From Nitrospirales bacterium (lineage in GTDB: Bacteria; Nitrospirota; Nitrospiria; Nitrospirales; UBA8639), in NCBI GenBank assembly GCA_963555755.3, contig OY820905.2, positions 2,272,001 to 2,336,000 on the forward strand: a stretch of DNA of 64,000 bases. Direction: 5' to 3'. The first letter of the stretch is position 1; each line of letters begins with the position of its first letter. This document shows, one piece after another, positions 62,665 through 64,000 of the stretch. The notes beneath the pieces were generated by a model. The model was not told the origin of the DNA and did not search any database. It saw only the letters and a program-made list of their open reading frames with translations. A program made the translations under genes and the position numbers.

Positions 62665-62790
62665 CAGGCTCTATTCGTCGTTGCAAACCTCTCTATCATT
62701 CTTTTAAGGTGACAACGAGGCTTGGGCACACGCACAAACCACCCAAACCACCAACATCAGCTGGGGGGAATGTTCAAAAAAGCATGCCCT

Positions 62791-63031
62791 TGTATAATGC
62801 AAGGAAGGGTTGTAGTCCAACTCACCCGAGCTGCCTCTTGTCTGAAGAGGGCATAGCCAACGTAGGGAAAAGGCTGTACCCTCACGGTATTGTGAATCCT
62901 GGCATGATAGACCGTTTGCCCTATGGGAATCAGCCCGTGACTCAGCGCAGGTCGTCATGCCCTTTCTCTGATGAACCCGAACGGTTGCCTGGGACACCAA
63001 GCCCGTATCAACAAGGTTGGGAGACAGAGCG
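62791..63031 (+). ncRNA. IS110 left non-coding end encoding a putative bridge RNA
   Basis: Two internal-loop hairpins with guide-like segments matching the target (TGCCCT / GACTCAG) and the donor (ACGGTTGC / ACAAG). Confidence 0.75.
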
Positions 63032-64000
63032 ATGAAATCAAAATCCTCAGAATTGTTTATCGGTATCGACATTTGTAAAGCTCGATTAGACGTGGCAGAC
63101 AATGCCAATTCGCTTCCATGGTCGGTAGCCAACAACGACGCCGGCATCGCCGCGCTGGTGGAGCGGCTCCACGTCCTTCACCCCACTCTCATCGTGATGG
63201 AAGCCACAGGGGGGCTGGAAACGCTTCTGTATGCGGCCTTAACCACCGCCGGGTTGCCGGCGGTCGTCATGAATCCCCGTCAGGTGCGGGACTTTGCCAA
63301 GGCCCTGGGCACCCTGGCCAAAACCGATGCCCTGGACGCCCGAATCTTGGCTCGCTTCGGGGCGGCGATCCAGCCGGCGGTCCGGCCCATGAAAGACGCC
63401 ACCACCCAGGAATTGACGGCCTTGGTGACACGGCGACGGCAGTTGCTTGCCATGCAGACGGCGGAAAAAACCCGCCTCCAGCAAGCAGCCAAATGGATCC
63501 GCAAAGATATCAACGCTCATATCGCCTCCCTGGAAAAACGGCTCCAAACAATCGAAGGTCATATTGCCGAGATTATTAAACAGACCCCCGGCTGGAAAGA
63601 GAAAGATTCGCTCCTTCGAAGTGTGCCGGGGGTGGGCAACGTCTTGTCAATGAATCTCCTCAGTAGCCTGACCGAACTCGGGACGCTCAACCGAAGAGAA
63701 ATCGCCACGCTGGTGGGCGTTGCCCCCTTAAACCGCGACAGCGGAAACGTGCGCGGCAACCGAAGGGTCTGGGGAGGCCGGGCCCAAGTCCGCGCCGCCC
63801 TCTACATGGCGGCCCTGTCCGCATCACGATTTAATCCGGTCATCAAAACATTTTATCAACGCCTGATTGCACAAGGGAAAAAACCCAAAGTGGCCCTCAC
63901 CGCCTGTATGCGAAAACTTCTGGTCATTCTGAATACGATGGTCAAAACCCAAACAGCATGGAACCCAAATCAATATTCAACCCTTGACTTTAATCACGGT
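63032..64000 (+). mobile_element. IS110-family recombinase (open at the window end)
   Basis: Manual translation: [58 protein letters not shown] and catalytic Ser intact. Confidence 0.95.

Follow-up and report, generated by a model that had tools for sequence, protein, structure and literature searches.

The window, the whole 64,000-nucleotide stretch analysed (C1:2272001-2336000 of the host genome), ends within an IS110 insertion sequence that measures 1216 bp from core to core (62789-64004), its last four bases lying past the window end. Just upstream are an IS630-like transposase gene (DDE_3 and HTH; 60426-61493), a long inverted-repeat element (61537-61860) and a MEKHLA-domain gene (62170-62664), the last of which is on the same strand as the insertion sequence and ends 125 bp upstream of it. 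The element, its recombinase and its target occupy the following positions (hyphens within target sequences mark the edges of the core).

62766-62788, plus strand: left arm of a dispersed hairpin repeat of the host, ending in the left target GCATGCC (62782-62788); the repeat continues from the fifth base beyond the window end
62789-62790, plus strand: left-end copy of the CT core, whose right-end copy (64003-64004) lies outside the window
62789-64000, plus strand: IS110 element (ending at 64004), one of 13 copies in the genome
63032-64000, plus strand: IS110 recombinase, 324 aa, with D13/E57/D99/D102 and S237, running to the last base of the element; its TGA stop consists of the core T (64004) and target GA (64005-64006)
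7211-7358, minus strand: empty repeat copy with the target module, a long hairpin (z = -3.7)

The recombinase comprises N-terminal PF01548 and C-terminal PF02371 domains (84 and 67 bits), scores 210.7 bits against NF033542 (cut-off 140) and is similar to the recombinases of IS621 and ISCro4 (E 2e-35 and 1e-37). D13, E57, D99, D102 and S237 align with D11, E60, D102, D105 and S241 of IS621, so that the DEDD motif and catalytic serine are intact, and assignment to the IS110 group of the IS110 family (IS621-type bridge recombinases) is supported by these protein comparisons. The IS1111 group, in which a long non-coding right end downstream of the transposase holds the seekRNA, does not fit a coding sequence that reaches the last base. 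The closest relatives of the element are in Nitrospirota/Nitrospirales records, to which the host probably also belongs, and a search of a plasmid collection returned distant partial matches only (66-67% over 23%).

Every motif coordinate given in the original prediction, which was made from the window alone, was found in place on re-checking, including an element start at which GCATGCC (62782-62788) is followed by the core CT (62789-62790). The sequence past 64000 had been forecast to read TGCT and then GAGTC; the genome reads TGCT, then GAGTCTTTCCGAAGG. Other copies had been expected to share the target, and they do so. The host genome holds 13, namely eleven of full length (identity 96.7-100%; in one of them the donor-loop stem has lost 6 nt), one without the last 29 bases (92% identity) and one fragment with only the last 355 bases, and all 12 left ends are preceded by GCATGCC while all 12 right ends are followed by GAGTCTTTCCGAAG. 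The diverged copy (C1:2149029-2150215) has no right end and the fragment (C1:1572761-1573115) no left two thirds; half-match recombination could have left them as halves, as could other insertions.

The target, GCATGCC-CT-GAGTC, is a short hairpin module of 20-25 bp nested in a dispersed repeat of Nitrospirales, a 146-bp hairpin with inverted ends (z -3.7) present at roughly 353 loci in the genome. Empty copies in the window were located at 7329 (minus strand), 15120 (minus) and 16332 (plus), as had been claimed, and there are 7 matches with up to 2 mismatches compared to 0.55 by chance. Genome-wide there are 81 empty exact TGCCCTGAGTC sites, where about 2 would occur by chance; 76 of them have both repeat arm and module, and about 13 of 94 sites are filled. 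One correction to the original prediction is that only about a quarter of repeat copies carry the target module, the CCCTGAG..CGAAGG sequence being replaced in the others by a different insert or by none. The repeat is thus modular, with short hairpin inserts (CCCTGAG..CGAAGG; GCATGCCC(T/C)CGCGGAGGCGG in 22 copies; others) at differing positions, and the pattern CTGAG..GAAGG occurs 253 times compared to 65-103 for control patterns. A comparison of the repeat with ERIC, by blastn against E. coli genomes, gave no match at E 1, and GAAGG and CTGAG had no matches in the available main text of a REP survey (PMC3733652).

Between the left end and the recombinase gene lies a predicted bridge RNA, listed here with the donor and promoter motifs of the two element ends.

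62901-62961, plus strand: predicted target-binding loop, with outer stems GGCATGA/TCATGCC (62901 and 62955) and GACC/GGTC and an inner hairpin GGG/CCC
62915-62922, plus strand: left target guide TTTGCCCT, 6 nt plus core; TGCCCT matches the repeat and all 8 match a non-repeat site
62939-62947, plus strand: right target guide GACTCAG, 7/7 to CTGAGTC, with handshake guide CG (62946-62947)
62966-63029, plus strand: predicted donor-binding loop, with closing stem CCC/GGG (62976-62978 and 63019-63021)
62981-62988, plus strand: left donor guide ACGGTTGC, 8/8 match
63007-63015, plus strand: right donor guide, discontinuous 9-nt form, 7/7 donor bases paired, two-base bulge
63016-63017, plus strand: donor-loop handshake guide GT
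62791-62798, plus strand: right donor TGTAT (62791-62795), overlapping the -10 box TATAAT (62793-62798) of a predicted circle-junction promoter
63984-63989, plus strand: -35 box TTGACT, within coding sequence; joining of the ends sets it 17 bp from the -10 box
63996-64000, plus strand: start, within coding sequence, of the left donor ACGGTTG (63996-64002)

The target-loop stems, the right target guide and the left donor guide stand as first proposed, both guides pairing in full. Guides were read in IS621 numbering, taken from the available portion of PMC11208158, which the donor loop fits base for base. AACC/GGTT had been taken for the donor-loop stem and must be replaced, as the conserved closing stem is CCC/GGG and GGT is made up of the final guide base and the handshake guide. 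The proposed right donor guide ACAAG (63011-63015) was correctly placed but too short, since the discontinuous form pairs seven donor bases, and the proposed left target guide TGCCCT (62917-62922), although right in position and in its match to the repeat, probably extends to the full eight bases. In 34 of 46 relatives the register of this guide is one base later; against the repeat, four bases and the core match, with a TT versus CA mismatch at target positions 2-3 and position 1 unpaired. At the handshake positions, C is complementary to donor G7 and G to target C7, an arrangement that favours strand exchange. The 3' strand of the stem that closes the donor loop is also a likely ribosome-binding site, GGGAG (63019-63023), so that folding of the bridge RNA and translation of the recombinase may be mutually exclusive.

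A donor loop was obtained for 78 of 98 loci; 57 of these are distinct, and the alignment comprises 55, without two whose target loop is deleted. The consensus RNA has two internal loops with an inner hairpin in each; 96.2% of 1142 cells are paired, two-sided changes occur at 13 of 21 pairs and none of 500 shuffles did as well, shuffled and slid controls being far lower than the real alignment, from which the tested structure itself came. Folding of the single sequence is modest (z -0.22 and -1.54), and Rfam, which has no family for this RNA, returned four weak matches below the gathering score that we judged to be chance. Two relatives in a Dehalococcoidia genome (L085 and L087) have lost the target loop and still lie at the family's usual target, possibly having moved in trans or decayed in place.

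Guides and flanks vary together across relatives. For 46 aligned loci with both flanks (9 were dropped), representing 31 distinct guide pairs, the mean left match is 3.39 of 4 bases compared to 1.79 when permuted, and the mean right match 4.39 of 5 compared to 2.17; in neither case did any of 20,000 permutations, which treat kin as independent, reach the observed value. The donor-loop handshake base also tracks target position 7 (G:C 27, A:T 3, A:G 1). Fits are poor in L071 and L096 (0/5 right), in L035 (2/5) and in L068. It could be argued that loops match flanks by descent or by chance and that the protein alone recognises the repeat, since the relatives are not independent and the RNA here is predicted from sequence. 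We regard this as extremely improbable, because over many lineages the guides change in step with unrelated targets (CTCCC, GTCCC, GCACC, CACTT, TGAAC and others), handshake base included, and a requirement for the RNA has been shown for IS621 (PMC11208160, in the text available). The claim that the element follows the IS621 bridge-RNA design is thus borne out by its DEDD/Ser recombinase, the covarying two-loop structure, guide-flank covariation and one target for all copies.

The CTGAG..GAAGG hairpin module is also the site of 32 of 128 related elements, many of them in marine Dehalococcoidia (L026, L032, L038, L040, L048, L050, L061, L064, L104, L116, L121, L146 and others); judged from these sites, several IS110 lineages track one repeat motif across phyla. 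Three further copies (L043-L045) lie within tandem CCCTTGAA-type repeats, whose unit is matched by the guide.

One insertion falls outside any repeat. Contigs of run X5 include one left and one right loose end of the element, and these map to the two sides of a single CT in the host genome (C1 near 2572440, minus strand), at a site that is empty there and differs by one base on each side. It reads CCTTTGCC-CT-GAGTA, agrees with the left guide throughout and with the right guide at 4 of 5 bases, and is one of two genomic matches to the 12-mer TTTGCCCTGAGT. The site lies inside a gene for a 1152-aa type I restriction R-subunit-like protein (L204:2663-6121; below curated cut-offs), which the insertion would knock out. 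Two unjoined contig ends from one run suggest recent movement and a guide-based choice of site. The right loose end of X6/X9 and the left loose end of X6 each keep only 5 target bases, and their sites are absent from the host genome.

The original prediction had described the repeat as a landing pad against which the guide is programmed. The uniform flanks at all 12 left and 12 right ends agree with this, but the guide is imperfect (TT versus CA) and the X5 insertion lies elsewhere; on these alignments it is likely that the guide rather than the repeat selects the site. Most sites that fit the guide lie in the hairpin module of an abundant intergenic repeat, and therefore nearly all copies land there. 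A dual match, in which target choice needs the repeat hairpin besides the guide, has a precedent in ISPpu10 (10.64898/2026.03.19.712850, from the part accessible) and would account for host flanks that are full repeat modules in 12 of 12 cases, and for the 32 relatives in the module, which span Nitrospirota and Chloroflexota. We nevertheless consider it unlikely, as 76 of the 81 empty exact 11-mers lie in the repeat anyway, so that the guide alone predicts the pattern; moreover the X5 insertion is at a coding, non-repeat site and the close relatives L003, L004 and L101 lie outside the module. As a guide/target pair the element is well documented; it is compact (1.2 kb) and recently active, comes from nitrifying Nitrospirales, and might serve as an insertion tool for this group with ~80 intergenic landing sites.

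Very probably, then, this IS110 element moves by IS621-type bridge-RNA recombination into (TT)TGCC-CT-GAGTC sites, with a recombinase stop codon to which the element contributes its last base and the target site its first two. The boundaries, core, target, guides, covariation and stop position are read from sequence; the remaining steps are carried over from IS621, for which excision by read-through transcription (PMC13626964, as partly available) and RNA-guided strand exchange with a junction promoter (PMC11208160, likewise) are described. Read-through transcription would supply the recombinase and bridge RNA, and the ends would join at the CT core to create a TTGACT-17-TATAAT promoter. One RNA loop would then read the junction and the other the target in an RNA-guided strand exchange, for which the handshake arrangement (C against donor G7, G against target C7) would favour insertion. 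The predicted spacing was borne out by the sequence past 64000, which places TTGACT (63984) exactly 17 bp from TATAAT (62793) on circularisation. TTG stands at the -35 position (-21) in 115 of 128 elements, and with the 17-bp spacer this predicts a sigma-70-like junction promoter. According to the part of a preprint available (10.64898/2026.08.31.748434), IS621 circles are mostly single-stranded, so that copying would be required before such a promoter works. No circle joint was present in Logan contigs of eight runs (X2, X3, X5, X6, X7, X8, X9 and X11), contigs being a form of data that drops rare forms, and the exact circle-junction motif had no match in viral_contigs. Contigs of the RNA runs X7 and X8 cover the element, a kind of coverage that cannot give start, strand or level.

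The original prediction overlooked the lack, within the element, of a stop codon for the recombinase gene. The frame ends CAC GGT TGC T-GA, in which GA are target bases, and all 11 full host copies stop at T-GA; the stop codon is borrowed, the core giving T and the target GA, and this GA is specified by the TC of the right target guide. Coding sequence accordingly fills the right end and includes both the -35 box and the left donor. Among 128 distinct full elements, obtained from 203 loci after 75 were dropped (20 duplicates, 17 partial, 38 without end, loop or flank), 70 stop at the TGA of the -35 box, 19 at T-GA and one deeper in the flank (L171, 15 bases in), the rest having other internal stops. 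The 19 comprise 10 host copies and 9 others, all with GA targets, and eight non-host guides plus that of L002 specify GA. This stop-less state occurs on three branches (a Nitrospirales/Nitrospinaceae clade with support 100, L109/L146, and L064), a provisional count as it comes from a quick tree of 110 intact proteins in which L064 is a long branch.

Most relatives stop at the TGA in the -35 box; the host lineage is shifted by one frame and stops only at T-GA. The frame shift is most likely a tolerated compaction, made possible because the guide always delivers GA. It is plausible that stop completion in turn constrains target choice; the three GA-only origins are weak evidence for such a constraint (about 0.06 by estimate), and stop-forming targets are likewise present in 39 of the 99 intact elements whose stop is internal. 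Stop borrowing would restrict reprogramming at target positions 10-11 to GA, AA or AG. Unless one of these pairs is present at the target, the C-terminus is wrong both in automatic gene calls and in engineered versions, so that retargeting of the whole element would be constrained.

The absence of an internal stop has a further consequence in the predicted circle, where the recombinase frame would continue for 81 codons through the bridge RNA to give a protein of 405 aa.

62790-63035, plus strand: stop-free frame of 81 codons across the whole left end; its TGA (63033-63035) overlaps the start ATG (63032-63034)

This extended form is probably incidental, and that the 81 codons have a role seems doubtful. 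A more elaborate possibility is that the missing stop is a working switch, with a 324-aa integrated form and a 405-aa circle form, ribosomes passing through the bridge RNA and restarting at the overlapping ATGA, so that the form and amount of protein are set by the state of the element and by correct landing. The left-end frame is open in 16 of 19 stop-less elements, but 15 of these 16 belong to one clade, it closes after 25-29 codons in L035, L109 and L146, and it is also open in 28 of 103 controls, which have no need of it. In the window copy the other two frames hold 6 and 5 stops and only 2.4% of shuffles are open; however the 61 alleles show no significant avoidance of stops (P 0.10-0.34) and left-end pN/pS is 0.45-1.03, like frame 1, compared to 0.10-0.28 for the recombinase. 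The frame ends on or beside the start codon in both the host clade and the unrelated L064, it is kept by a +1/-1 indel pair in L101/L004 and by the 6-nt deletion in one host copy, and a plus-strand terminator-like site was not found in or beside the element. Against this, IS621 circles are reported to be mainly single-stranded (same preprint, part available). On balance we find a switch improbable, and only as a speculation would we suggest that a bridge recombinase checks its own landing, the guide-chosen bases finishing its gene so that only correct insertion yields the normal enzyme, with the circle giving a 405-aa form coupled to its own start codon and hence state-dependent control of excision versus insertion. 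Tolerated compaction remains our preferred reading of the missing stop. The borrowed stop nonetheless offers a simple test of whether a mobile element senses its circular or integrated state via translation, and control of directionality is an active question for bridge recombinases.

Among insertion sequences whose transposase gene ends in flanking DNA, IS870 belongs to the IS630 family, and IS1110 and IS1547 to the IS110 family. Like IS870, ISMt1, IS1547, IS1110 and IS1239, the element takes its termination signal from the flank, a CTAG target supplying a TAG stop for IS870 and ISMt1 (PMC13630536, in the available text). In that text their site is not described as RNA-chosen, whereas here the stop-completing bases are written in the guide RNA. 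We found no description of a bridge-RNA element whose guide supplies its own stop codon in the literature, including the available part of 10.1101/2024.04.26.591405, nor of IS110 in Nitrospira repeats; ISfinder entries, supplements or subscription papers may hold either.

In other respects the element resembles IS621 and ISCro4 (PMC11208160, PMC11208158, PMC13626964; PDB 8wt6, 9t56), with which it shares a DEDD and Ser recombinase, a left-end bridge RNA, a CT core, a junction promoter, an 8-nt left donor guide, a discontinuous 9-nt right donor guide, handshake guides and a REP-type target. It differs from IS621 in having no non-coding right end, where IS621 has about 105 bp (298 minus 191), and from both in a stop completed by the target, a short left and long 7-nt right target guide, and a left end of 243 nt that would form an open frame in the circle. 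As with ISPpu9, ISPpu10, ISPa11 and ISRm19 (PMC1525189, part available), all copies lie at one position of a host palindromic repeat with a duplicated 2-bp core, but their target is a module of 20-25 bp inside a 146-bp hairpin repeat of Nitrospirales. Its one hairpin-less insertion argues against a strict structural gate of the kind reported for ISPpu10 (10.64898/2026.03.19.712850, part available). REP-type repeats as IS110 targets were already in print for these four elements and IS621 (PMC1525189), as was natural guide/target concordance (PMC11208160), both in the portions available. As first described, the element is therefore an ordinary one; it is a new variant through its target-supplied stop codon.
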